Shown here: positions 9,898-63,502 of the stretch, one piece after another | How the letters are laid out: each line of letters begins with the position of its first letter | Position numbering within the stretch: position 1 is the first letter of the stretch | NCBI GenBank assembly: GCA_035286125.1 | Contig: JAYKIS010000082.1 | Location: forward strand, 1,253-65,252 | Reading direction: 5' to 3' | Length of the DNA: 64,000 nt | From: Candidatus Sericytochromatia bacterium | GTDB lineage: Bacteria; Cyanobacteriota; Sericytochromatia; S15B-MN24; VGJW01 | Notes under the pieces: generated by a model | Told to the model about the DNA's origin: nothing | Databases searched by the model: none | Seen by the model: only the letters and a program-made list of their open reading frames with translations | Position numbers and translations under genes: made by a program

Positions 9898-12800
9898 TCA
9901 ACCCGTGAGCAGCCTCGCCCGGTCGCGCAAACGCTCGAGGTCCATCGCCGCCATCGCGCGAGCGGAATCCATCAGGATCCGCTGCCGTGTCTGGATCACC
10001 GCCTCGCTTGCCACGTCCGCGTCAACGAGGTCGGATTGGGATCTTTGGGCCATGGTCCCCTGGATGCCCAAGGCCGCTGTCTGGTGCCCGACGCGATTCA
10101 TATAGGCGCCAAGGCGGTTCAGGCGTCGGGTCAAGGCCTCGATGGCCCCGTCACAGACGCCGATGGCCTCGGAAGCTTCTGTGGCGTCCATCAGGCAGAT
10201 GGCCCCGAGTCCGAGTGTCTCGACGGTGACTGCCTCCAGTTGCCACGTCTGGGTGTCGACGGCACGGGCCCCGCCCAGCAGGTCCACCCGCAGCGCACCG
10301 GTGGTGCTGGGATCCAGTCGGTCGTACGTGATGCGAACGTTGTTGCCGTCCCCGGACAGGGCGTGGGCGCCCACCAACTCGATCTTGTATTCGCTGTAGA
10401 GCTGGACCCCTTTGTAAATGGTGCCGGGTACCGGAGGATGCAGGTACCAGCCGTCCCCGGCCAGGCTGCTGCTTCGTGGCACGGCAATGCTGTTGGCTGT
10501 CACGGTGATCGTGTCCTCGTCTACCAGCAGGCCGGTCGGAGAGACAGGAAAGCCCGTTTCGCAGCCGTCCGGGCTGCCTTGGGGGATCGTCAGCAGGAAG
10601 GTGTTGTCACCGGCGACGGCGTAGCTGATGCGGAACGTGGTGGAGCCGACGGATGCGTCCTTCTTCGGGTCAAGGACCTCCAGACGCGTATGGCCCGCGA
10701 GGGTTCGGAATCCGGTGCCGGAACCGCTCGTGTCTTCGGAGAGCGCTACCCCGTCCATGGTGACCTCGACCGAACTGCGGTTGCCATAGTCGAGCGCCTG
10801 AGCCGGGATGGTCAGGCTGGTGGGTGTCCAGTCGTCATTGGCCGTATCGTCGACCCACGCACGGATACTTGTGCCCGCGCCGGACATGGCGTTGGGCAGG
10901 ATAGATGGTGAGCTGATGTCGATGCGGCGTGTGTCCAAGGTGTCGAGGCTCCACCCGCTCGTCCGGGTGATGCCGTTCGTGATGACCTTGACTGCATCCG
11001 GGTCGGCTGCCCCAGCTCCGTTTGCGAGTCCTGCTCCGTCCGGCGAGGCGAGGCCCCAGTAGTCCGGTCGAACCCCCAGTTGCACCTCCAGTATGCCGTC
11101 GGTGTCCTGCGCCATCCCTGTGTCCGCGTAGTAGCGAACCCCCAGGGATTGCGAGAGTGTGCCCTGGGAGGTGCCAAGGAAGGTCAGTGTCCGGCCCGCA
11201 GCGTCGTAGATCAGGTCATTCAGGCCGCCGGCCGCGGCCGACACGGGGCGGACGGCGTTGCCGTTTCTCAGGCCGGCGATGGCTTGGGAGGCTGTCGCAT
11301 CATCCAGGCCGTAGGTCTCGGGAGTCTCGGCGAAGACCAGATCCACGGCTCCGTCGCCATCATCGTTCCGAGGGGTCATGTTGCCGCCGGCCGCCACGTT
11401 GTAGTCCGTGCGGTAGTCGACGCGGATACCTTGGGAGCCACTCGGGCGGGCGTTGCCGTGGATGCGGATGCTGTTGTTGTCGAAGAAGCTCCAGCCGTTG
11501 GTGCCAGTCGGGTCATAGGCGACCGTCTGGCCACCGGTGCTGACGATGACGGAGGCGTTGGTGGTGCTGCGCGCCGTGCTGTCCGAGATACCGCCGGGTA
11601 CGGAGCCCAGTTGGTACTGGACCGGTGCATAGGCCAGGTCCACTTGGACATAGGGCACGCCTGTGCCGGCATCCGTACCATTTCCCCCGGACGCTCCCGA
11701 GAAGGACAGCGTGTCATTGCTGTCCAACAGGCCGCTGCCGTGGAAAGTGATGGTCTTTGCCACGTAGTCGATGCTGTAGCCGTTCGTACCCGTGGCGTCA
11801 TACGGTATGTTCCGGGCGACACCTGTCCGGGTCGACGTGACGCCGACACTGACTGAGGGGCTGCCGTCCGCCAACTGGTACAGGTTGAAGCCCGACAGGC
11901 TGTAGGTCTGGGGGATGCCAGCGGTGTCGCCATCGGCATTGATTCGATTACCCGGACCAACGGACGGTGGAGAACCGGTAGAAAAGCTGTGCACCTGGAT
12001 GGTGGCGGCGGAGGTGGTGGTGTCCTGTACCAGCGCGATCCTGTCGCCCGTGGGCGAGAAGGTGAATTGTGCGTTGCCCGACGAGAAGGCCAGGACACGC
12101 GTCCATGCATCCGTGCCCTTTCGCGCGTAGAGGCCTCCATAAGTTCCGGTGGTGCCGTTGCTTCGATTGGACAACTGCCAGAGTTCCCCGCCAATCGTGA
12201 CGGTTGTCCGGGAGACGGCATCGAAGCTCGCACCGCCCGGCGGAGCCTGACCTGTCGAGCCTGCCGGATCGTAATACACCGTCTGGGTGCTGCCGTTGTC
12301 CAGGATGCGGGTGGCTCGGATCGTGTTGCCGTCGGAGGACCATCGCGGTGTGATGTGCTTGATGTCGACGGGGTCCGAGACCGTGAAGGTCTCGGGGCGA
12401 TAGGCCTCGGTATCGGCGACCCCGAGGCCGGTCGTGAATGGCGCGATTGTCCTGGAGTAGGCTTGTCCCCTCGGGCCGTAGTTGTCGGCGGTCGGGATAC
12501 CGGATGTCTCTCCCGAGTCGTCTCCGAGCAGGACCTTGCGGGTGTTGTATTCGGTGCTGGTGGCCGTCCCCTGGATGGCCTGCAGGGCCTGGCGCACCTG
12601 TTCCATCATCATCGACCGCTGATCGTCGGTCCAGATACCCTGCGCTGCGCTGACAGCGAGTGTGCGCAGGCGATGAACCTGCTCAAGGACCTGCCGGGTT
12701 CCCCCTTCCGCTGTCGCGGCCAGGTTCCAGGCATCCTGCAGGTTCTGAATGGCCCGATGGGTCCCGCGGATATGGGACTCGAAACGTGCGTTCCGGGCCA

Positions 12801-12924
12801 TGGCGCCCGTATGCGCGGCGGCGCGCAGATCACCCGGCTTCTCGCCGACACGCCGGAGGCTCTCGGCCCACGCCGCCTCCATGCGGCCGTAGACCGAGCG
12901 CAGCCCGCTCGAGCGGATCTCCAT
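9898..12924 (-). CDS. Giant flagellin-like protein (1008 aa) with a ~790-aa beta-rich central insert
   Basis: Flagellin_N-like (NLQDA..TAEG..HRLRTLAV..TEYNTRKVL) and Flagellin_C-like (LGAYMNR..DADVASE..RQRIL) termini. Confidence 0.88.
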   Translation of the reverse strand: MEIRSSGLRSVYGRMEAAWAESLRRVGEKPGDLRAAAHTGAMARNARFESHIRGTHRAIQNLQDAWNLAATAEGGTRQVLEQVHRLRTLAVSAAQGIWTDDQRSMMMEQVRQALQAIQGTATSTEYNTRKVLLGDDSGETSGIPTADNYGPRGQAYSRTIAPFTTGLGVADTEAYRPETFTVSDPVDIKHITPRWSSDGNTIRATRILDNGSTQTVYYDPAGSTGQAPPGGASFDAVSRTTVTIGGELWQLSNRSNGTTGTYGGLYARKGTDAWTRVLAFSSGNAQFTFSPTGDRIALVQDTTTSAATIQVHSFSTGSPPSVGPGNRINADGDTAGIPQTYSLSGFNLYQLADGSPSVSVGVTSTRTGVARNIPYDATGTNGYSIDYVAKTITFHGSGLLDSNDTLSFSGASGGNGTDAGTGVPYVQVDLAYAPVQYQLGSVPGGISDSTARSTTNASVIVSTGGQTVAYDPTGTNGWSFFDNNSIRIHGNARPSGSQGIRVDYRTDYNVAAGGNMTPRNDDGDGAVDLVFAETPETYGLDDATASQAIAGLRNGNAVRPVSAAAGGLNDLIYDAAGRTLTFLGTSQGTLSQSLGVRYYADTGMAQDTDGILEVQLGVRPDYWGLASPDGAGLANGAGAADPDAVKVITNGITRTSGWSLDTLDTRRIDISSPSILPNAMSGAGTSIRAWVDDTANDDWTPTSLTIPAQALDYGNRSSVEVTMDGVALSEDTSGSGTGFRTLAGHTRLEVLDPKKDASVGSTTFRISYAVAGDNTFLLTIPQGSPDGCETGFPVSPTGLLVDEDTITVTANSIAVPRSSSLAGDGWYLHPPVPGTIYKGVQLYSEYKIELVGAHALSGDGNNVRITYDRLDPSTTGALRVDLLGGARAVDTQTWQLEAVTVETLGLGAICLMDATEASEAIGVCDGAIEALTRRLNRLGAYMNRVGHQTAALGIQGTMAQRSQSDLVDADVASEAVIQTRQRILMDSARAMAAMDLERLRDRARLLTG

Positions 12925-37349: not shown

Positions 37350-37486
37350 ACCTCCTGTCGATGGGAACCCTGTTGAGTCGTGTAGAGGGAACATGGTGCC
37401 CGTACCCATGGGTGCCGTCGCCTTAAACACGGCAAGGCGCCCGGGACGTGCGGGCCGTGCTACGATCGGCGACCGGAGGACGACGC

Positions 37487-38050
37487 GTGCCCGAATTCAT
37501 CGCATGGCCCCTGTTGGCTGCCGCAACCGCAGCCACGCCATCCGTGGCCCCCATGGCCTCACCTTCCGAATGGGCGGGTGCCGAGCCCTGGGAGGCTGAC
37601 CTGCCCGAGGAAGATGCTCCCCACATCCTGCCCGTGACGGGAGCGCGCCTGTTCGCAGGTCTCGGTAATCCCGAGTTCGCCCACCTTGGCCTGGCCTACC
37701 GCTCGGGCAACATGGAGGGAGCCGTGTCGCTGGGCAGCCTGGGTACCGCCAACAGGGTCGACCTGCGCGCTCGCGGCTACCTGCTGCCGCACGTGGGCGC
37801 CATCTTCGCCGAGGCAGGCTATGGTTTCCTGCAACTGGCGAAGCTGTCGGATCAGACGCCGGCCGAGACGTTCCAGCAGCCGTATTTTGGCGTGGGCTGG
37901 CAATTCTTCGAGCGCCCCAGTCCCTGGGTCTTCGATCTCAGCCTTGGTCTCTCTCCCGGCGGTCCGGAAACCCTGGCGGCGGCACCCGGCATCATCAATG
38001 GCAGCCGGCTGCTGCCGCGCTTTGCGTTGGAGGTTGGGTATGCGTTCTAG
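37487..38050 (+). CDS. Small outer-membrane beta-barrel protein
   Basis: GGAGGA SD, signal-like N-terminus, amphipathic strands and a C-terminal beta-signal LEVGYAF. Confidence 0.65.
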   Translation: MPEFIAWPLLAAATAATPSVAPMASPSEWAGAEPWEADLPEEDAPHILPVTGARLFAGLGNPEFAHLGLAYRSGNMEGAVSLGSLGTANRVDLRARGYLLPHVGAIFAEAGYGFLQLAKLSDQTPAETFQQPYFGVGWQFFERPSPWVFDLSLGLSPGGPETLAAAPGIINGSRLLPRFALEVGYAF

Positions 38051-39125
38051 CCATCGTTGGCGCGCGTCGCTGCTTGTCGGGGCCATCGCCCTGTCGGGTT
38101 GCGGCTTCTACTCCGTGGCCTCGGTCGGTGGTGACCTGGGCTCGGGTATCGCGTCTCCCGCCGAGAATGGCGCCAAGCTCGTCTCGTCGGCCTTTGCCGG
38201 TCGGACCCTGACCGAGCAGGAGAAGGACACGCCCGTCGTGGTGGCCGTGCACGGCTTCTCCGCGACGACTTTCGAGACCATGTACAGCACGGGGACCACG
38301 CCGCAGGAGGCAAGCGCCTCGTACAACATGGAGCGTCGTGGACTGCTCGTCTCCCGGGTCCTCATGGGCGGTCACAACGTCACGCCGGCTGCCTTCGGGG
38401 CGAGCCGCTGGAGCGACTGGCAAAAGCCGGTTCTCGATGAGGTCGAGGCCCTGCAGAAGCTGGGGTTCCGCAAGATCGACATCTTGACGGTCTCGACCGG
38501 TGGTCCCATCGTCATGCAGGCCTTGTTGTCGGGCGCCTTCAAGAGCAGGGGCGTCACTCCGCGCCGCATCACGATGGTGGCACCCATCCTCGAATTCAAG
38601 GACAAGGCCATCAACCTGCTTGGCGTGCTCGAGACGCTCGGGGCGTCGAACAGCCCCTCGCCGACCAGCGGTGTCTCGCGCGGACATTGGTATGCCGATC
38701 GTCCCATCGGTGCCGTCAAGCAGCTGCTTGACCTGACGGAGGTGGTCAAGGGCCAGTTGCGTCGCATAGCCGCCGGCGACTTGCCGGGATTACCTGCCGA
38801 AACGCGCCTGCTGATTGTCCAGTCGGACGGCGATGGCACGGTCGACGCCGTCAGTGCCGAGATCTGGCTGCGCGGCCTGCGTGGCAAGCTGACGGACACC
38901 ACACAGGGGTCGGGTCTCATCAGTCTGCTCAAGGTCGTCTCGTCGCGTCACGTGCCGGTCGGTCCTCCGAATCTTGCGGGCGAGAAGGACGGTACACGCT
39001 CGATCGACGGTATCGCCTACCCGACCTTCCCGGACGCCAAGGATGCTGAAGTCTGGCAGGATGCGGAAGTCCGCCTGCGTGTCCGTCTGCTGGAACAGAT
39101 CGGCGACTTCCACACCGCCCTGTGA
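38040..39125 (+). CDS. Lipoprotein alpha/beta-hydrolase (carboxylesterase-like)
   Basis: LSG-C lipobox, VHGF oxyanion motif, TVSTGG nucleophile elbow, QSDGDGTVD (Asp) and SRHV (His). Confidence 0.75.
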   Translation: MRSSHRWRASLLVGAIALSGCGFYSVASVGGDLGSGIASPAENGAKLVSSAFAGRTLTEQEKDTPVVVAVHGFSATTFETMYSTGTTPQEASASYNMERRGLLVSRVLMGGHNVTPAAFGASRWSDWQKPVLDEVEALQKLGFRKIDILTVSTGGPIVMQALLSGAFKSRGVTPRRITMVAPILEFKDKAINLLGVLETLGASNSPSPTSGVSRGHWYADRPIGAVKQLLDLTEVVKGQLRRIAAGDLPGLPAETRLLIVQSDGDGTVDAVSAEIWLRGLRGKLTDTTQGSGLISLLKVVSSRHVPVGPPNLAGEKDGTRSIDGIAYPTFPDAKDAEVWQDAEVRLRVRLLEQIGDFHTAL

Positions 39126-39733
39126 CCACGGACGTCGCGCCGCCCTTCGTGGGTCTGGGCCTGCTTGGGCCGACACGGCCCACCTGGGTAGGTCGTGCCT
39201 CGGCTGACTTGCCGGCATTGCTCGCCGACCACGCCTCTTGCGAGCGCAAGGCTGCGGCAACGGCGATGGCCTTCGTTGCGCGCCATCCGGACGATGTCCG
39301 GTTGGTGGAGAGCATGGTGCAGCTGGCACAGGAGGAGTTGGCTCACTTCGAGCGCATCTTCCACCTGATGCGCCGCCGTGGTTGGCCGCTGTCGCGGGAT
39401 CGTGCGGATGCCTACGTTCGTTCGCTGCTCGACCATGTCCGTCACGCCCCTGCCCTGCAGACGGTCGATCGCCTTCTGGTGCTCGGGTTGGTCGAGGCCC
39501 GTTCGTGCGAGCGGTTCCGCCTGCTGGCGGCGGAGCTCGAAGGCAGGGATGACGAGCTTTCGGTTCTTTACCGGGAGCTTTCGCTTTCAGAAGAAGGTCA
39601 TGCCCACCTGTTTCCGGCACTTGCGTCGCGCTATGCTGCAGATGACGAAGTGAAGGCGCGTCTTGCCGAACTCAGGACCATCGAGGCCGCCATCGTGGCG
39701 GCCCTGGGCGACGAACCCGCCATGCACGGGTAG
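39122..39733 (+). CDS. miaE: tRNA-(ms2io6A37) hydroxylase
   Basis: DHASCERKAA, EELAHF, EARSCERF and SEEGH di-iron motifs. Confidence 0.9.
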   Translation: MTTDVAPPFVGLGLLGPTRPTWVGRASADLPALLADHASCERKAAATAMAFVARHPDDVRLVESMVQLAQEELAHFERIFHLMRRRGWPLSRDRADAYVRSLLDHVRHAPALQTVDRLLVLGLVEARSCERFRLLAAELEGRDDELSVLYRELSLSEEGHAHLFPALASRYAADDEVKARLAELRTIEAAIVAALGDEPAMHG

Positions 39734-39744
39734 GGAGGGACCGC

Positions 39745-40770
39745 ATGGGCCTCGGCTTGCTGGCGGGTTGGGTCCTCGTGTCCTACCACAACCACAGTTT
39801 CCACAGCCCGGACTCCCGGCTGACGGCCCGGGACTTCGTGCGGTTTGCCCGGGGAACCGGGGTGGATGCCGTCATCGTCACGGACCATGACAACGTGCGT
39901 GCGGCCTTGGACCCTGCTTTCCGGGCAGCAGCCCGCCCTGACGGAGGCTCCTTTGCGAGGGCGTCCAACCGTCCGGAACCCTTCCTGATGTTCGGCGAGG
40001 AGTGGGGGACGTTCCGTGCCGGCCGGGTCCGTTGGGGCCACGTCGGTCTCATCGGCCTCGATGATGGCGTCTCGCCTGCCGGTGAGGCCCCCCTTGCCGA
40101 GGTCCTGGCCGGGGCCCGTGCCCGCGGGGCGCTGGCCATCGTCAATCATCCCTTCAACTGGGCGCTCTCGTGGCGGGGGGGCGAACCCCCGGCGGGCGTC
40201 GCGGGTGTCGAGGTGTGGAACCAGGGCTGGTTCATGCCGGTGATGGAAAATCCCAAGGCCCTTGCCTGGTGGGATGCCGCCCTGCGCAAGGGGCGTCGTC
40301 TGCTGGCGCTCGGGGGAGCCGATACCCACGGGCTCGAGGGCAGCAGCTACTTCTACAACGAGACTCGCGTCGACAGGCCCGTCAACATGGTGTGGGCGGA
40401 GCGTCCGGATGCGGCAGCGGTCCTTGCGGCCCTGAGGGCTGGCCGCGTCATGGTCGCGCGCGACAGCCGTGCCCCGGGGATGGTTCTCGAGGTGGACGGT
40501 GCAGGGCCCGGGGAGGTCCTTGCGGCGGGTACGCCGGGCCGGGTCCGGGTCAGCCTCGCGGGCGCCCGAGGCTGCGACCTGACCTTGCATACGGCACAAG
40601 GCCTTTTGCATCGGGTACACATCGCATCGGCTCGGCAGGAGATTCGATGCCGCCTGCCCTTGCTGGCTGCGGGTGACTTCGTCCGGGCCGAACTGCGGCG
40701 GCCGGGTTGGGGTGGGGACGAGATGGAGGTGCTTGCGAACCCTGTCTATGTCTCCCCCGGTCCGCTCTAG
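39745..40770 (+). CDS. PHP-domain (CehA/McbA-like) metallohydrolase
   Basis: HNHSFHSPD, VTDHD, GEE, NHP, EVWN and GADTH motifs. Confidence 0.8.
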   Translation: MGLGLLAGWVLVSYHNHSFHSPDSRLTARDFVRFARGTGVDAVIVTDHDNVRAALDPAFRAAARPDGGSFARASNRPEPFLMFGEEWGTFRAGRVRWGHVGLIGLDDGVSPAGEAPLAEVLAGARARGALAIVNHPFNWALSWRGGEPPAGVAGVEVWNQGWFMPVMENPKALAWWDAALRKGRRLLALGGADTHGLEGSSYFYNETRVDRPVNMVWAERPDAAAVLAALRAGRVMVARDSRAPGMVLEVDGAGPGEVLAAGTPGRVRVSLAGARGCDLTLHTAQGLLHRVHIASARQEIRCRLPLLAAGDFVRAELRRPGWGGDEMEVLANPVYVSPGPL

Positions 40771-48664: not shown

Positions 48665-51130
<2,466 letters not shown>

Positions 51131-51145
51131 TCGTCATTTCGACGC

Positions 51146-51185
51146 AACGAGGGCCTGTCCGGGTAATCCGGGCAGGCCCTTTGTT
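51146..51185. terminator. Probable bidirectional terminator between ahcY and the selenoprotein gene
   Basis: Stem AGGGCCTGTCCGG/CCGGGCAGGCCCT (one G-U pair), loop GTAAT, followed by TTGTT on the plus strand. Confidence 0.7.
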
Positions 51186-51197
51186 CCTGAAGGATGC

Positions 51198-51422
51198 TCA
51201 GGCGAGGCTGCGCAGCTGGTCGAGGACCTCGGGGCCCTCGGGGAACGCACCCGTCTGGTTCTTGGAGTAGACCAGCACGGAGTCGGCGTGCACATCGAAG
51301 ATGCCCCGGGTGCCTGGCACCAAGGTCGCCTGGATCGAGAACTCCTGCTTGATGAGGGCCGCCAACCTGGTGGCCTCCGGCAGGTAATCTCACATCGTGC
51401 AGTAGGTGATGCGTATGTCCAT
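51198..51422 (-). CDS. SelW/SelT/SelH (Rdx) family selenoprotein, 74 aa, UGA read as Sec at codon 11
   Basis: MDIRITYCTM-U(TGA 51392-51390)-DYLPEATRLAALIKQEFSIQATLVPGTRGIFDVHADSVLVYSKNQTGAFPEGPEVLDQLRSLA*. Shows the ITYCxxU, GxFDV, SK and FP Rdx motifs. Confidence 0.88.
51351..51389 (-). promoter_or_regulatory. Putative bacterial SECIS hairpin directly 3' of the Sec UGA
   Basis: UGA-GAUUACCUGCCG-GAGGCCACCA-GGU-UGGCGGCCCUC. The G-starting apical loop lies about 22 nt after the UGA. Folded by eye only. Confidence 0.6.
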
Positions 51423-51474
51423 GCCGGGCACCATACGGGAATCCGCGAACCGCCGCAAGGTGTTACAGTGGACC

Positions 51475-52971
51475 ATGCCCAACAGTGCCCCCGAGCGCCC
51501 CGAGTTCCGTTCCTTCCATCTTCGTCGCGAGTTGCTCGAGGGCCTGGCCGAGATGGGGTACTCCACGGCCACGCCTGTTCAGGCACTCGCCATCCCTGCC
51601 GTCCAGGAAGGCGGCGATCTGCTGGTGCAGGCCAAGACCGGTTCGGGCAAGACGCTGGCCTTCGGGTTGCCTCTGCTGAATCGCGTCGACCTCCATCGCC
51701 CCGACTGCCAGGTGCTTGTGGTCGTGCCCACGCGTGAGCTCGCCCTTCAGGTCGCGACCGAGCTCGAGCGCGCCGGTGCGGCCCTGGGCATCGTCATCGG
51801 TGCCGTCTTCGGCGGCATTCCCATCAAGGAGCATGTCACCACGGCGCAATGGGCCACGGTCCTCGTCGGCACGCCCGGTCGCCTGCGCGACCTGCTCGAG
51901 CGCGGCATGCTTCGGCTGGACCACGTGCGTTCCGTGGTGCTTGACGAGGCCGACGAGATGCTCGACATGGGCTTCAAGGTCGACCTCGAGTTCATCCTCG
52001 ATGCCGCGCGCCAGCGCCAGCAGACGCTGTTCTTCTCGGCGACCTTCCCGCCTGAAATCCTCAAGATTGCCAAGCGCACCCTCAAGGATCCGCGCCGCCT
52101 GCAGGCCCAGCCCGAGGAACAGACGCCGACGACGATCGAGCATCGCGTGGTGCGTGTCAGCCAGGAGAAGAAGTTCGAGGGTCTGGCGCGCCTGCTCAAG
52201 GGCGAGCACATCACCCAGGGCATCATCTTCTGCAACACCAAGACCGAGACCCCTTGGCTGACGCGGCGCTTGCGCGCCCAGGGCTTCTCCGCAGATTGCC
52301 TCCACGGCGACATGAGTCAGCAGGATCGGCTCAAGGTCATGGACCGCTACAAGACGCAGGGCTTCACCTTGCTCGTCGCCACCGAAGTTGCCGCCCGTGG
52401 CCTCGACATCGCAGGCATCAGCCATGTCGTCAACTACTCGGTCCCCAATAACCCCGAAGTCTACTTCCATCGTTGCGGACGCACGGGGCGCGCCGGACGA
52501 AGCGGCGTGGCCATCACGATGGTCACGCCGCCGGAAGAGCGGCAGTTCACCCGGATCGAGGAGGCGCTCGCCGCGCGCAGGCCCAAGGGGACCAAGTCTG
52601 CCGAGGCTCCTCGTCCGACCGCTGCTGCCGAGGAGCCTGCTGCGCGCACAGAAGCGACAAGGGCCGCCGAGCCCGCCGGGAGCGCCGCGCGGTCGGCCCC
52701 GCGCGCAGCGGAGCCCGTGGCGGCCGTCCCGGCCCAGCGAACCCGTGAGCCGCGTCCGCAGCTCCCGCAGAACAACGGCCGTGGCCGCACCCGGCAAAAG
52801 GGCCTCAAGATGGCTTCCGAAGACCTCATCGCCTATGCCGGTTCATCAGCCGACACGCATCACGCGTTGGCGCGCCACCTGCTTCACGCCGGTGACCCCG
52901 TGACCCTTGTCTCGGCCTTGCTGGCCGTGCATCCCCTCGTGCGCGAGGCGGCCCGCAGCCAGCAATCCTGA
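51475..52971 (+). CDS. DEAD-box ATP-dependent RNA helicase
   Basis: Q motif, AKTGSGKT, PTRELA, DEAD, SAT, ARGLDI and HRCGRTGRAG motifs. Confidence 0.95.
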   Translation: MPNSAPERPEFRSFHLRRELLEGLAEMGYSTATPVQALAIPAVQEGGDLLVQAKTGSGKTLAFGLPLLNRVDLHRPDCQVLVVVPTRELALQVATELERAGAALGIVIGAVFGGIPIKEHVTTAQWATVLVGTPGRLRDLLERGMLRLDHVRSVVLDEADEMLDMGFKVDLEFILDAARQRQQTLFFSATFPPEILKIAKRTLKDPRRLQAQPEEQTPTTIEHRVVRVSQEKKFEGLARLLKGEHITQGIIFCNTKTETPWLTRRLRAQGFSADCLHGDMSQQDRLKVMDRYKTQGFTLLVATEVAARGLDIAGISHVVNYSVPNNPEVYFHRCGRTGRAGRSGVAITMVTPPEERQFTRIEEALAARRPKGTKSAEAPRPTAAAEEPAARTEATRAAEPAGSAARSAPRAAEPVAAVPAQRTREPRPQLPQNNGRGRTRQKGLKMASEDLIAYAGSSADTHHALARHLLHAGDPVTLVSALLAVHPLVREAARSQQS

Positions 52972-55527: not shown

Positions 55528-58500
55528 TCAGGTCAGTTGGAAGTGCCATGTCAGGTTGTGGTTGCTGTCGACCTCGACCAGGTGATTGGCGCCGGCGTGA
55601 TGCACCATCGTCCTGCCCGAGTCGAGGCGCCAGGCCAAGACCGGGGTCAGCATCTGCATCTGGAATCTTCCCTTGCGGCCGTAGCAGGCAGGCGCACCGC
55701 CATACTGCCAGACGAGCTTGCCTGCGGGGTCCAGTTCGAGCACCCGGTGGTTCTGGGTGTCGGCGATCAAGGTGTGCCCGTTGGCAAGCCGTGTGGCGTG
55801 CTCCGGATGGAACAACTGGCCATGGGCGTTGCCCGCGTTCCCCGGTTGCCCGAAGGCCCACACCGTCCGTCCCTGAGCGTCGAACTCATAGATGGCGTGC
55901 CCCCCCCAGTCCGTGACGAGCACGTTCCCATTGGGCAGCCGCGTCGCGTGACTGGGTGCCGCAAGATTATCCTTGCGCCACACCACGTCCTGGCTGACCG
56001 TGACCTCGAGAACGCGTCTGTTGCCCATGTCCGCCACGAGGAAGGTCCCGTGGCTCGTACGCTCGACGCTGGCCGGTTCGTCGAGCTGCTTGGGCGCGGC
56101 ACCCCGCTCCCCCATCTTGCCGAACTGCCAGACGATGGCATTGTCCCTGATCTCGATGATCCGATGATGACCCGTGTCGGCGACAAGGGTGCCGCCCTGG
56201 GGGGTCCGCCACGCGTATCGGGCCTGGGCCAGCCGCTGCCTTTCGCCACCGGACAGCCCGGTGTATTGCCAACTCACCTGCAGCTTGCGGTTGACCTCGA
56301 GCAATCTGTGGCGCGAGCGATCCGCAAAGAGAAAGGTCTCGGGCAAGTTGGGGGGCAGGGCGCTGGCCTGGGTTTCGGGGGCGGGAGCCTCACCGGCCTG
56401 GACCTCGGGTACGGAGCCTTCCGGCTGCCCGACTTCGCCGGGGGCGGATGGAGCACCCAGGTTCACTTCCCTTGCCGGACGGCCCTCGGCATCGACACAC
56501 ACGGCACCGCCTCGGCCCGCAATCCACGTCCGGCCCTGACCGTCTCGCTCTGCCGCATAGGGGTCGCGGGCCGCCGCACCGCCCCGCGCAGGCGCGATCC
56601 GGTGCGCCCAGCGAATCTGTCTTCCGCCGTCCAGCTCGATGACGCGCTGGTTGCCGGTGTCGCAGACGAGGAGGCCGCCATCGGGCAACAGGGCGATCCC
56701 CTGAGGATCGCTGAGTTGCCCGGCACCGGTGCCCTGGCCGCCACCAAGTCGGCTCGAGGCATTGCCATACTGCCACAGCACCTCGCCAGCCGCATCGACC
56801 CCGAGGATGCGATGGTTGCCCGTGTCGAGGATGACCGTCAGGCCGTCTGCCCGACGCAAGGCTGCCCCGGGCTTGAAGAGCAGGCCACGCGCCACCCCTG
56901 CCTTGCCTGTCTCGCCATAGCTCCAGACCACGGTGCCGGCGGGAGTCACCTCGAGGACCCGATGCTGGCCGGTGTCCACGATCAGCGTGTGGCCGCTGGC
57001 GAGCCGTGAGGCATGCCGGGGCTGCTTCAGGCGCTCGGCATCTCCGCCTCCGAAGCCCCATACTTCCGTCTGATTCCTGCGGTCGAACTCGATGACCCGG
57101 CCCAGATCAAGGTCCACGAGCAGCACGTTGCCACCCGGTACCCGACGTACCATTGCGGGCATCGGCATCCGCTGGGACCACGTCTCGCTGCCATCCGGGG
57201 CGAGTCCGACGGCCCGGCGGCGCGGAGGATCGGCCAGCAGCACCTCGGAATCGTCCTGACCCACCCAGGCGTCGACGGAGTGGACCTCGCTGGCTTCGTC
57301 GACGCCCTCCGGGTCCCGGTCATCCGGCTGGCTTCCGGCCCACGTCGCAAGGGGGGGCGTCGGAACGTCTGCTTGCGGTTCTGGCGCATCCGGTTCGGCA
57401 GCCCTGGCAGGCGCCGGGTCAGGAACGGGAGCGGCAGGTTGCCCTGACCGCAGGGCGGCTGCCTGCTCGAGCAGTTGAGGATAGCGACCCGTCAGAAAGC
57501 GCGCGAGTTGTTCTTCCCCGATGGCGACAGCCACGGGCTCTGCGCCGCCTGCCAACTGTGCGGCCAGTTGCAGGCCCGTCGGGTCCCGCGGATCGAGCAT
57601 GGCCACCACAAGTCGGCCGTCCTCGCGGAACAGCGGCACCATGCCCAGCGATCGCACCATCCGCTCGGGGAGCTGGGCCACGACCAGCGGGTCGACCCGG
57701 CTGTCTTCCAGGGGGCCGGCGTGGGGGGCATTGTCCTTCAGGCGGGCCAGCTCGGCACGGGTGACGACGCCCATCCCGATAAGCACGTCCGTCAGGCTGG
57801 GCGTCACGGGCAGCCACTCGCGCACGGGCGGGTGCGCGAGGGTCAGCGGCATCATGTCGAGCGGTGCGTCTTTCTCCAGCTTGCGCCGCTGCAAATCAAT
57901 CGTCAGCAATCGATGGCGACCAGCCTGTGTGCCTTCCTGCACCACGACGCTCAGGCGGTGCCCGTCCGGCGAGATGCGGAATGGCTCGACAGGGGCGGTT
58001 GAAGCGCGGTGGCCGGGCAGATTGAGCAGGTGCCGGACGCGCAGGTCTGCGGTCGAGACCGTCAGCAGGCCCAGTTCGTCCCCCGTGCGATAGAACAGCA
58101 CGTAGAGCAACTGGCCGTCGGGACTCAGGCCGAGGGGGCCGAGCGGCCCTGTAGGGAAGTTCTGGAAGCGTGGCTTGCCCGTCGTCAGGTCGATGACGCC
58201 CAGGCGGGGCGTCTGGCCATCCGTGACCCACCCCTGGCGACCGAGCGCGGCAAGCCCGAGGGCCTTTCGGCCACCGGCCGGACGAATCTGGACAGCGGCC
58301 GCCTGGGTGCCGGAGGCTGCCGCGATGACGTGGACGATGCCCGTGCCGCGGTTTCCGGCGAGGATGAACTCTCCCCCGGGTGACGTGGCCAGATCGATGG
58401 GGCCGACGGGTTCGGGCTGGGGCGACTGGATCGGACTGGGCAGGGTCAGGACCGAAGGTGAGGTCGCACGCTGGGGCACTCCGGCGAGGGCAAGGAAGCC

Positions 58501-58860
58501 ACCCTGTGGCGTGGCGAACAGGCCCGGCCGGACGTTGGCAGGCGCCTGGACGACATCTTCGATGGTGAGGCCATCGAGGGAGAGCACGAGCACACGACCG
58601 TCGGTCCACCGCGGCCAGCCACCCGTATCCACGGGTTCGCCCGCCTTGACCGAGGCCATCACCGTGCCGCGCCTGGGGTCCTTGAAGGGCACTACCTGCG
58701 CGGCATCGTCCGGGACGACGGCCGGCGGCATGGGAATGGGTTTGGCGACGGTTTCCTGCTGGACGCGCCGTTGGGCCTCTGCCAGCTGGGAGGGCGTGAC
58801 AAGGCGGGATCGGACGAGCAGGTCGCCAATCAGGGCGTCGTCGGGGACAGGATTCGACAC
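55528..58860 (-). CDS. Multidomain protein: split PilB/GspE N-terminal (MshEN-like) domain, YVTN-like propeller and NHL-repeat propellers
   Basis: LIGDLLVRSRLVTPSQL (aa ~9-25), SLTDVLIGMGVVTRAEL (aa ~355), LPERMVRSLGMVPL..LVVAMLDP, and many LxxP..LIADTGNHRV NHL repeats. Confidence 0.8.
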   Translation of the reverse strand: MSNPVPDDALIGDLLVRSRLVTPSQLAEAQRRVQQETVAKPIPMPPAVVPDDAAQVVPFKDPRRGTVMASVKAGEPVDTGGWPRWTDGRVLVLSLDGLTIEDVVQAPANVRPGLFATPQGGFLALAGVPQRATSPSVLTLPSPIQSPQPEPVGPIDLATSPGGEFILAGNRGTGIVHVIAAASGTQAAAVQIRPAGGRKALGLAALGRQGWVTDGQTPRLGVIDLTTGKPRFQNFPTGPLGPLGLSPDGQLLYVLFYRTGDELGLLTVSTADLRVRHLLNLPGHRASTAPVEPFRISPDGHRLSVVVQEGTQAGRHRLLTIDLQRRKLEKDAPLDMMPLTLAHPPVREWLPVTPSLTDVLIGMGVVTRAELARLKDNAPHAGPLEDSRVDPLVVAQLPERMVRSLGMVPLFREDGRLVVAMLDPRDPTGLQLAAQLAGGAEPVAVAIGEEQLARFLTGRYPQLLEQAAALRSGQPAAPVPDPAPARAAEPDAPEPQADVPTPPLATWAGSQPDDRDPEGVDEASEVHSVDAWVGQDDSEVLLADPPRRRAVGLAPDGSETWSQRMPMPAMVRRVPGGNVLLVDLDLGRVIEFDRRNQTEVWGFGGGDAERLKQPRHASRLASGHTLIVDTGQHRVLEVTPAGTVVWSYGETGKAGVARGLLFKPGAALRRADGLTVILDTGNHRILGVDAAGEVLWQYGNASSRLGGGQGTGAGQLSDPQGIALLPDGGLLVCDTGNQRVIELDGGRQIRWAHRIAPARGGAAARDPYAAERDGQGRTWIAGRGGAVCVDAEGRPAREVNLGAPSAPGEVGQPEGSVPEVQAGEAPAPETQASALPPNLPETFLFADRSRHRLLEVNRKLQVSWQYTGLSGGERQRLAQARYAWRTPQGGTLVADTGHHRIIEIRDNAIVWQFGKMGERGAAPKQLDEPASVERTSHGTFLVADMGNRRVLEVTVSQDVVWRKDNLAAPSHATRLPNGNVLVTDWGGHAIYEFDAQGRTVWAFGQPGNAGNAHGQLFHPEHATRLANGHTLIADTQNHRVLELDPAGKLVWQYGGAPACYGRKGRFQMQMLTPVLAWRLDSGRTMVHHAGANHLVEVDSNHNLTWHFQLT

Positions 58861-61342: not shown

Positions 61343-63502
61343 TCAGGCCCGCAGCAGCGATGAGGTCAGCCGCAGGTAGACCCCGGGGTTCTGCTGCAGG
61401 AAGCGGCGGAGGTCCGGCGCGGACATCCGATAGGCCGTCACGGGGCCGCGTGCCACGAGATGCCGCGATGCGGGCTTCTGGTCGAGGATGCGGTCGATTT
61501 CCCCTGCAAGTTCCCCGCCACTCCAGGTCAGGTCCGGAAGGTCATCGGCCTCGCCGACCACGATGCCCTCGTCAATCAGGTAACAGACCCGCGCCCGTTG
61601 CCCGGCCTGTGTCAGCTCTGTCCCGTCAGGAAGCACCACCGCCTCGAGCATGCCCTGGAACTGGGTGCGCTGGGTGGGCGTCAGTTGCCGGAAGACAGGT
61701 GAATAGGCCAACCTGTCCCACGCGGGCAGCTGTCGGATGCGGGCCAGACGTCGCAGCGTCTCGAGCAGCTCAGTGCCGCGCAGCAGGTAAAGCAGGTCAT
61801 GGGCGGCCATCGTCAGGACCTCGAGGTCCGATCGGGCGACGACGTCCGCCGTGCGTGGCGTACCCAGGACGATGGCCGCCTCGCCGAAGTAGTCATGCTG
61901 CCCGTAGACGGCGACCTCGCGGCCCTCGCCATCGAGCACGGCAGCCTTGCCCTCGACGATGATGAAGAACTCGCCACCGGGGTCGCCGCGCCGGATCAGG
62001 ATGTCCCCGGCCTTGCAGCGACGGGCCTGCGTCATCGAGAACGCCTCGGCTGCCTTGGCCCACGGCAGGCTGCTGAAGAGGCCTACACGGCTCAGGACAT
62101 CAAGCGTCGTCTGGGCGGCGCTGTGCCGTGGTCGCTCGTCGACCAGCGCCACCGTCTGGTCGAGGCCCGCGGGTGCGATGCGCATGCCGGTACCTTCCGG
62201 CAGGTTCCGCGCGCTCAGGTGAATCAGCATGACGCGGCGACGCACGTCCTCGGGCAGTTGCAGGAGCTCCTCGAGGCGCGTATGCAGGGGCGGAATGCCG
62301 GCTTCGTGCAGGACCAGGTCGTGATGCCACGGGAAGTCCATCAACTGGTCGAGACGCGCCTGGTCGATGACGCCCAGGCGATGCAGGGCACGAAACGTCG
62401 CCGGATCGTAGAGCGTGTCCGAGCTGTAGACCAGCGAGCGCCCTCCATAGAACACTTCGAAGCCCACGCACGGGACGGAATGCAGGGAGTATCTGAAGTG
62501 GAACTCGGCCCCCTCGATGCGGACCGGCTCGCCGATGCCGACGGGCGTGAAATCGAAGAGCGAGGTGAAGCGGGTTCGGGACAGACCCGCCAGCGGTGCA
62601 TTCTTGGCCACGAAGCTCCGCATGATCGTCGGCGTCGTGAAGACCCGGATACGGCCCTCGGCGAGCACCTTCTGCAGGGTGCCGCCGTCATGATCGGCGT
62701 GGCAGTGCGTGAGGACGATGGCGTCGATGAGCTTCGGGTTGATCTCCTGGTCGCGCAGCCAATCCATGCTGCCGACGGGAGGGTCCACGAGAATGCCGCG
62801 ATGATTGGCCCAGATGATGAAGCCGCTGGTCATCGTCTCGGGATCGAAGCCGTGGCCGGTGCCGATGAACGTCAGGCCGAAGGCGGGCGGATGGAACGGT
62901 GCGATGCGGTCATGGCGCTCGCTGGCCTGCTCGGGCAAGGGCACCTGCTCCGGGAATCGGGCCAACTCCGCGTCACCGTCCAGGACCACGAAACCCGCAC
63001 CGACGGAACGGCTCACGGTCACGCTACCGACCTTGGCGATGCCCTTGCGGTCGAAGGTGACGAAAGACAGCATGTCTCCGAGGTCCATTTCGACACCCCG
63101 GAATGGACAGGTCCTGAAGTAACGGAATTCCGCGGCCAGGTCGGGCACCGGGCCCCGCAGGATCTCGCGCGAGACATCGGGCTTGACCGGGCCGAACACC
63201 GCCTCGCGCATCATCGCCGTCAGGTCCCTCTTCTGGCGCTCTTCGCAGATGACGGTGGTGCGCTGACGCTTGACGAAGTAGTTGTAGTAGACGGGAAACT
63301 CGAGGTCGGCAAGGCTGATCCCCAGCTCGGCCGAGAACAGGTGCCCGGGCAGCAGGTAGATGGCGGGAACCCCTTCCGGCTTCCCGATGGTGTCCTTGAT
63401 GGTCTCCGGCACCGCACCGTATTGGATGGGCCCCGCCGGAGTCCGTACGAGCAGGCCACCGCGTGACAGCGGCACGGGGCCTGGCGCGACCTCGGGACTC
63501 AT
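61343..63502 (-). CDS. MBL-fold cyclic-nucleotide phosphodiesterase with two C-terminal cNMP-binding domains (PdeD/PdeE-like)
   Basis: PETIKD, EFPVYYNYF, GTGHGFDP, THCHADHDGG and HEAGIPPLHT motifs. cNMP cassette FGEAAIV..PRTADV. Confidence 0.85.
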   Translation of the reverse strand: MSPEVAPGPVPLSRGGLLVRTPAGPIQYGAVPETIKDTIGKPEGVPAIYLLPGHLFSAELGISLADLEFPVYYNYFVKRQRTTVICEERQKRDLTAMMREAVFGPVKPDVSREILRGPVPDLAAEFRYFRTCPFRGVEMDLGDMLSFVTFDRKGIAKVGSVTVSRSVGAGFVVLDGDAELARFPEQVPLPEQASERHDRIAPFHPPAFGLTFIGTGHGFDPETMTSGFIIWANHRGILVDPPVGSMDWLRDQEINPKLIDAIVLTHCHADHDGGTLQKVLAEGRIRVFTTPTIMRSFVAKNAPLAGLSRTRFTSLFDFTPVGIGEPVRIEGAEFHFRYSLHSVPCVGFEVFYGGRSLVYSSDTLYDPATFRALHRLGVIDQARLDQLMDFPWHHDLVLHEAGIPPLHTRLEELLQLPEDVRRRVMLIHLSARNLPEGTGMRIAPAGLDQTVALVDERPRHSAAQTTLDVLSRVGLFSSLPWAKAAEAFSMTQARRCKAGDILIRRGDPGGEFFIIVEGKAAVLDGEGREVAVYGQHDYFGEAAIVLGTPRTADVVARSDLEVLTMAAHDLLYLLRGTELLETLRRLARIRQLPAWDRLAYSPVFRQLTPTQRTQFQGMLEAVVLPDGTELTQAGQRARVCYLIDEGIVVGEADDLPDLTWSGGELAGEIDRILDQKPASRHLVARGPVTAYRMSAPDLRRFLQQNPGVYLRLTSSLLRA

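Follow-up and report, generated by a model that had tools for sequence, protein, structure and literature searches.

A SelW-like (Rdx) gene of a Sericytochromatia bacterium with a conserved in-frame UGA codon that is very probably read as selenocysteine

In a stretch of 64,000 nt of DNA from a Candidatus Sericytochromatia bacterium (the window), the table-11 ORF list places two short ORFs in one frame of the minus strand: a 60-aa ORF at 51572..51390 that ends in ...MDIRITYCTM*, and a 55-aa ORF at 51365..51198 that starts with MAALIKQ.... Does the TGA that closes the first ORF end a gene, or is it an internal codon of a single gene that runs on into the second, and which amino acid would it then specify? 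On the evidence presented below we consider it very likely that the locus is a SelW/Rdx gene with a CxxU motif, in which UGA is recoded as selenocysteine (Sec) and a SECIS hairpin lies just 3' of it.

Reading frame, family and predicted fold

Translation from the ATG at 51422 through the TGA at 51392..51390 yielded a product of 74 aa, MDIRITYCTM-U-DYLPEATRLAALIKQ...RSLA. In its full form it reads MDIRITYCTM-U-DYLPEATRLAALIKQEFSIQATLVPGTRGIFDVHADSVLVYSKNQTGAFPEGPEVLDQLRSLA and is closed by a second TGA at 51200..51198. This CDS of 74 codons plus stop (51198..51422, minus strand) is assigned to a SelW-like/Rdx selenoprotein by its translation, by the Pfam Rdx family, by solved structures and by a structural model. 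The in-frame UGA, codon 11 (51390..51392, minus strand), is the proposed Sec codon and occupies the second position of the motif C8-T-M-U11; Cys8, encoded by TGC (51399..51401, minus strand), would be the resolving partner in this CxxU motif. The initial annotation had claimed that a complete 74-aa Rdx protein with normal codon usage is obtained by reading through the TGA. Both parts were borne out: the coordinates and the motifs GIFDV, VYSK and FP were exact, and GC3 was 0.85 in the part preceding the TGA and 0.94 in the part following it, values typical for the genes of the window (67% G+C).

With Cys substituted for Sec, the product matched PF10262 (Pfam Rdx) with an E-value of 5.6e-18 and 65.4 bits (cut-off 22.6). 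Residues 3-71 aligned with profile positions 2-73 of 74, so that the TGA falls inside the match. The NCBIfam model TIGR02174 CXXU_selWTH was also matched above its cut-off (48.2 bits; cut-off 34.2). The top-scoring NCBIfam model was NF041051 SelTWH_Campy (77.9 bits, E 5.2e-22); as its score is lower than the curated cut-off (88 bits), we do not assign the protein to that equivalog.

Six solved bacterial Rdx proteins matched the product by sequence, with E-values from 6e-09 to 2e-05 (2fa8_A: 6.2e-09), and Sec11 aligned to the second Cys of their CxxC motif (CTQC in 2fa8 and 2oka). An AlphaFold2 model built from 63 sequences had a mean pLDDT of 97.1 and a pTM of 0.86. The modelled order is a beta strand (residues 3-8), a helix (14-28), three strands, a short helix and a final helix (64-73), with the CxxU motif directly after the first strand and the first helix starting at residue 14. 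When the model was compared with the PDB, the top matches were all Rdx structures (TM 0.89-0.94, rmsd 1.0-1.6 A; TM 0.92 for 2fa8). The product is thus predicted to adopt a minimal thioredoxin-like fold, beta1-(CxxU)-alpha1-beta2-beta3-beta4-alpha2.

The Cys-form Rdx structures, namely Atu0228 (2fa8), the PA3341-like Q9HYQ7 (2oka), 2obk, 2ojl, 2p0g and 3dex, share the fold and the position of the motif with the modelled protein, but they carry CxxC instead of CxxU and are longer (~80-108 residues, with extra termini). The Rdx family and the thioredoxin-like fold are also shared with mammalian selenoprotein W (2npb) and MIEN1 (2ljk), although this match is weak (E 0.25 by sequence, TM 0.64). 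In mammalian SelW, the CxxU motif lies at the beta1/alpha1 junction, as in the protein described here. Eukaryotic SelW uses a SECIS element in the 3'-UTR together with SBP2/eEFSec, and not an in-frame hairpin.

Conservation of the UGA codon

We scanned a species-representative genome collection with a four-sequence alignment as query, which returned seven loci (L001-L007). Two of these, L006 and L007, are matches to the search pattern only (residues 19-66 at 40% identity; 12 residues), lack the CxxC/U N-terminus and were excluded from all counts. Of the five true homologous loci, one lies in a Candidatus Tanganyikabacteria MAG (81% aa identity) and two lie in Candidatus Sericytochromatia MAGs (79% and 74%). 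The remaining two, at 55% and 45%, belong to a Pseudomonadota MAG and a Pseudohongiella MAG, respectively. All five (L001-L005), located in other assemblies and in two phyla, carry TGA at the corresponding codon (contexts YCTM*, YCTL* and YCTA*), and in all five the frame is open and conserved on both sides of it. TGC or TGT at codon 11 in close relatives had been named beforehand as evidence that would speak against Sec; the opposite was seen, with TGA in 5/5 loci.

More distant homologues were collected by an exhaustive HMMER search of 1.84 billion representative proteins, which gave 314 matches at E-values up to 0.001, the closest representative having 49% identity. For the alignment, 146 of the 150 matches listed (314 in total) were used and four proteins longer than 160 aa were left out. 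Among these 146 representatives of the matches listed, C occupies the residue-11 column in 78, W in 39 and S in two; E, Y and A occur once each, and 24 that are short at the N-terminus have no residue there. The Cys8 column is C in 119/151 aligned sequences and absent through truncation in 28 more. The alignment of Rdx homologues at position 11, proposed as a check in the initial annotation, thus gave Cys in 78/146 distant representatives and TGA in 5/5 homologous loci. Trp is implausible at a catalytic redox position, and we therefore read the 39 W entries as probable TGA codons that were printed under a genetic code in which TGA stands for Trp.

Three representatives (P0025, P0031 and P0132) have W at both positions of the motif (Y-W-x-x-W) instead of CxxC or CxxU. 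If W stands for TGA in these entries, they would be UxxU forms with two selenocysteines.

A TGA in place of a Cys codon might also have arisen by nonsense mutation, or by an error of sequencing or assembly, so that the gene would be dead or would in reality encode a CxxC Rdx protein. Such an explanation would agree with Cys being the commonest residue of the residue-11 column (78/146 distant representatives among the matches listed) and with the gene content of the window, in which no Sec machinery was seen: it contains no tRNA, and no SelA, SelB or SelD domain was found among its 36 ORFs. Likewise, no tRNA-Sec was found in the flanks of L001-L005 and no sel gene among the 28 ORFs flanking L004 and L005; the flanks of L001-L003 are collinear with the window, whose 36 ORFs lack sel genes. 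An error or a mutation would have to recur, however, at the same codon in 5/5 loci from independent MAG assemblies and two phyla, and purifying selection is apparent on both flanks of the TGA. Within the 10 codons before it, the four Sericytochromatia sequences (the window and L001-L003) have six identical codons, three with synonymous and one with non-synonymous differences. We regard an error or a dead gene as extremely unlikely. Conservation of the codon leads us to infer instead that this lineage decodes Sec.

We also scanned the window for further genes interrupted by TGA, requiring coding-like GC3 on both sides; the scan is blind to Sec codons with fewer than 40 codons downstream. No second such gene was evident. 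Three candidates were returned, one of which was the Rdx gene itself. The second is antisense to the gene at 55528-58860, and the third, a stretch of 16+47 codons, was judged spurious.

A further alternative is that only the short downstream ORF (55-61 aa) gives a functional product, the first 10 codons being a separate leader peptide or untranslated. It agrees with what is found in databases. In a word-based search of 5.8 billion proteins, the only close proteins were four, namely the window's own and three with 93, 82 and 72% identity, each of them 55-61 aa long and lacking the N-terminal part up to and including the TGA. One of these truncated database proteins (P0005) shares 98% identity with the part of the L002 gene that follows its TGA, which shows that entries of this kind are mis-called genes with an internal TGA. 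Against a short product, alignment to the Rdx profile and to the solved structures begins at residue 2-3 and continues across the TGA, and the upstream peptide is in frame and conserved in 5/5 loci. Moreover, residues 3-8 form strand beta1 of the model, followed by the CxxU turn, so that strand 1 and the redox motif would both be missing from a protein that begins after the TGA. The starts available downstream are TTG or CTG codons within the region of the hairpin described below. Taken together, these findings make a short functional product very unlikely. The initial annotation had expected that standard pipelines would miss or mis-call the gene, and the four database proteins support this: in public sets the gene of this organism and of its relatives is annotated as a fragment of 55-61 aa, where a 74-aa selenoprotein should stand.

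The hairpin downstream of the UGA

In bacterial SECIS elements of the E. coli fdhF type, a hairpin within the coding sequence follows the UGA at a short distance and exposes G and U in a small apical loop. Downstream of codon 11 we found a hairpin of similar placement and with a similar loop, without sequence similarity to that type. The upper stem-loop of this proposed SECIS, GGCCaCCA / GGU / UGGcGGCC (51357..51375, minus strand; loop GGU at 51367..51365), corresponds to positions 48-66 of the gene. A lower stem of CUGC/GCAG and GA/UC, seen by folding and with RNAalifold, widens the SECIS-like structure to positions 40-78 (51345..51383, minus strand). Folding placed the start of the GGU loop 22 nt past the UGA, which agrees with the claim of a hairpin with a G-starting loop about 22 nt downstream. 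The available parts of PMC1088965 give a qualitative description of the element, a stem-loop with a small G-containing apical loop just after the UGA, and the locus has such a downstream stem-loop with a G in its small apical loop. At gathering score, Rfam gave zero matches in the window.

The folding energy was compared with two kinds of control. Among dinucleotide shuffles of a 71-nt segment, 4/200 were as good as the native sequence (z -2.42). With shorter segments the values were z -0.90 (37/200) for 48 nt and z -1.29 (24/200) for 25 nt, so that at 25-48 nt the hairpin is unremarkable in comparison with dinucleotide shuffles. In the synonymous control, the codons of residues 12-27 were re-drawn from the codon usage of the window (n=2000). 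The native 51-nt region folds at -20.0 kcal/mol compared with a mean of -13.2 kcal/mol for the recoded sequences (22/2000 as good), and the 26-nt hairpin at -12.0 compared with -7.4 kcal/mol (9/2000 as stable). The loop codons AGG and TTG are rare in the window, where they make up 7.2% of Arg and 9.3% of Leu codons, respectively.

We then considered pairing in six sequences, those of the window and of L001-L005, all of which have a hairpin in the corresponding position whose small loop contains G. For the eight pairs of the upper stem, 85.4% of cells are paired, compared with 20.8-64.6% when the 3' partners are slid by one to three columns. The A.C mismatch in the stem of the Sericytochromatia sequences is replaced by G-C in L004 and L005 (Pseudomonadota), and two stem pairs are changed on both sides, both double changes coming from L005 alone. 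Covariation is thus thin, and the observed score was reached by 14/500 shuffles. RNAalifold recovered the same hairpin with a covariation term of +0.75, which is not favourable. By eye, every apical loop of the six sequences contains the dinucleotide GU. All four Sericytochromatia sequences retain the lower stem, which is mostly broken in L004 and L005. The stem is written in conserved Glu-Ala ... Ala-Ala codons, and protein constraint therefore accounts for part of this conservation. Third-position differences among the four Sericytochromatia genes are fewer in codons 1-24 than in codons 25-72 in 6/6 pairs, which would fit an added constraint at the RNA level.

We propose the following course of events. 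The ribosome would translate MDIRITYCTM and reach the UGA at codon 11. The hairpin that starts 14 nt past the UGA (51375..51357, GGU loop) would act as a bacterial SECIS and recruit SelB-GTP-Sec-tRNA(Sec), so that Sec would be inserted. Sixty-three more codons would then be translated up to the ordinary UGA stop. In the product, Cys8 and Sec11 at the beta1/alpha1 junction would form a reversible selenenylsulfide, and the protein would presumably be a thiol-dependent oxidoreductase. Insertion of Sec, binding of SelB and the redox role are steps that we infer from the features of the gene.

Could the UGA be read through without Sec, by near-cognate Trp or Cys, by insertion of Cys via the Sec pathway, or by a lineage-specific reading of UGA? 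Simple read-through can also be promoted by a hairpin that follows a stop codon, and W stands at residue 11 in 39/146 representatives among the matches listed, as codes 4/25 print TGA. Within the window, however, TGA closes 23/32 confident ORFs, including the Rdx gene itself (TAG closes seven and TAA two). In the window UGA thus serves as the usual stop codon and is not reassigned, so that any read-through has to be local. The position concerned is the catalytic C/U of a redox motif, and UGA and hairpin also occur together in the Pseudomonadota homologues. Their combination is, moreover, the arrangement described for bacterial SelW-like selenoproteins in the accessible portion of PMC1088965. 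Read-through without Sec thus appears unlikely, and we hold with considerable confidence to the whole reading, a 74-residue SelW-like (Rdx) selenoprotein with UGA decoded as Sec.

Flanking signals, neighbourhood and host lineage

Upstream of the Rdx gene lies a promoter-like pair, TTGCGG (51458..51453) and TATGGT (51435..51430), separated by 17 nt and followed by the ATG after 7 nt (51430..51458, minus strand). The two hexamers match the sigma-70 consensus at 3/6 and 4/6 positions, and no promoter was called at the Rdx gene by a consensus promoter scan. In the window and L001-L003 (4/4), neither the TTGC and TAnnGT blocks nor the two spacings vary, whereas the bases of the spacer do. This conservation speaks for a real promoter from which transcription would begin at the AUG or beside it, and it makes leaderless expression of the mRNA plausible. 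The claim that the gene has its own promoter and is leaderless is weaker than the core reading: the hexamers and spacings are exact and conserved in three relatives, but the consensus is poor and the scan called none. The gene would be transcribed from a weak promoter, which may give a leaderless mRNA. If so, the hairpin at which SelB recoding takes place would lie just 48-66 nt from the 5' end.

The DEAD-box helicase gene on the opposite strand is listed at 51406..52971 (plus strand). Its real start is probably ATG 51475, which is invariant in L001-L003; the listed start, GTG 51406, would overlap the start of the Rdx gene. A -10-like sequence TACAGT (TAAAGT in L002 and L003) ends 5 nt before ATG 51475 in 4/4 sequences, and this divergent gene may also be leaderless. 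The promoters of the two genes share an intergenic region of 52 nt.

On the other side, a G+C-rich hairpin (51150..51180) lies between the convergent genes for the Rdx protein and S-adenosylhomocysteine hydrolase and is likely to be a two-way terminator. It folds at -25.1 kcal/mol (z -4.19; 0/200 shuffles as good), in line with the earlier proposal of a shared terminator. A hairpin is present at the same place in L001-L003, judged by eye, and in L003 its sequence is wholly different. The hairpin lacks a T-run on the Rdx side and was therefore not called by the terminator scan. This points to terminators in this lineage that depart from the E. coli-type pattern on which the scan relies. When Rfam was searched at E-values up to 10 over 51100..51500, the only matches were two Pseudomonas sRNA models on the terminator hairpin; both were sub-threshold and taken as chance.

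The neighbours of the Rdx gene are LptB, LptF/G, AdoHcy hydrolase and the DEAD-box helicase. This synteny is confined to Sericytochromatia and absent in L004 and L005, so that we see no functional link of the Rdx gene to its neighbours; a link to AdoHcy hydrolase or the helicase was considered and rejected on the same ground. The window is collinear with L001 (89.4% nucleotide identity over 20.2 kb), L002 (79.8%) and L003 (72-78%). In the NCBI taxonomy, Tanganyikabacteria belong to the class Candidatus Sericytochromatia within the Cyanobacteriota/Melainabacteria group. Collinearity of the window with the Candidatus Tanganyikabacteria MAG identifies the host as a non-photosynthetic relative of cyanobacteria.

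SelW-like CXXU proteins are a known and abundant family among bacterial selenoproteins (PMC1088965, PMC1794560, as far as the available text of both papers goes). In the Sargasso Sea data they ranked first in abundance among selenoprotein families, with 48 sequences, and the family recurs in genome surveys (available text of PMC1794560). Compared with the bacterial SelW-like selenoproteins in those portions of the two papers, the protein described here belongs to the same Pfam/TIGRFAM family and is similarly small. Its CxxU motif, too, lies about 10 residues into the chain, and 3' of the UGA there is again a hairpin whose small loop contains G. Unlike them, it occurs in Sericytochromatia/Tanganyikabacteria, and its mRNA may be leaderless. 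The gene matches the known description in every tested respect and is ordinary apart from its lineage; it thus belongs to a known selenoprotein family, and the lineage is its only, modest, novelty.

Sericytochromatia/Tanganyikabacteria are a non-photosynthetic sister class of the oxygenic cyanobacteria, in a phylum recorded as devoid of Sec in earlier surveys. In the accessible sections of a review, Cyanobacteria are named among the few lineages apparently without Sec use (PMC9312934). The only related study that we found, in the part available, mentions one Sec-bearing protein from a Melainabacteria proteome as well as proteins annotated as SelB-like in cyanobacterial proteomes (PMC9529120). 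A text search of the available portions of PMC13188914, PMC13326102 and PMC4561486 found nothing on cyanobacteria. Our literature search found no report joining Sericytochromatia with selenocysteine or a selenoprotein; supplements and BSepDB, which lay outside the search, may list such genomes. If the UGA is decoded as proposed, at least four Sericytochromatia species would keep the Sec-decoding trait, which is of some interest because the available text of the review lists Cyanobacteria as seemingly without Sec (PMC9312934).

That Sec decoding was retained in Sericytochromatia/Tanganyikabacteria and, in addition, that the single selenoprotein visible there is translated from a leaderless mRNA is a combination to which we give slightly less than an even chance. 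Retention, if true, would provide a marker for the timing of Sec loss along the cyanobacterial line. The gain from this locus is a correction of annotation and a small phylogenetic data point; it adds nothing on the mechanism of Sec decoding or on the function of Rdx proteins.

Other features of the window were noted in passing. Between confident ORFs there are several gaps of 1-3 kb, such as 37430-40707, that contain no ORF passing the GC3 filter. A 719-aa ORF at 61343-63502 (minus strand) combines metallo-beta-lactamase-fold and cyclic-nucleotide-binding domains and has a sub-threshold match to the anti-Pycsar protein Apyc1 (26.8 bits; cut-off 50); it may encode a cyclic-nucleotide-regulated or cyclic-nucleotide-degrading enzyme. 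At 9898-12924 (minus strand), a 1008-aa ORF carries Flagellin_N at residues 36-134 and Flagellin_C at residues 922-993, with about 790 unassigned residues in between, and looks like a giant flagellin.
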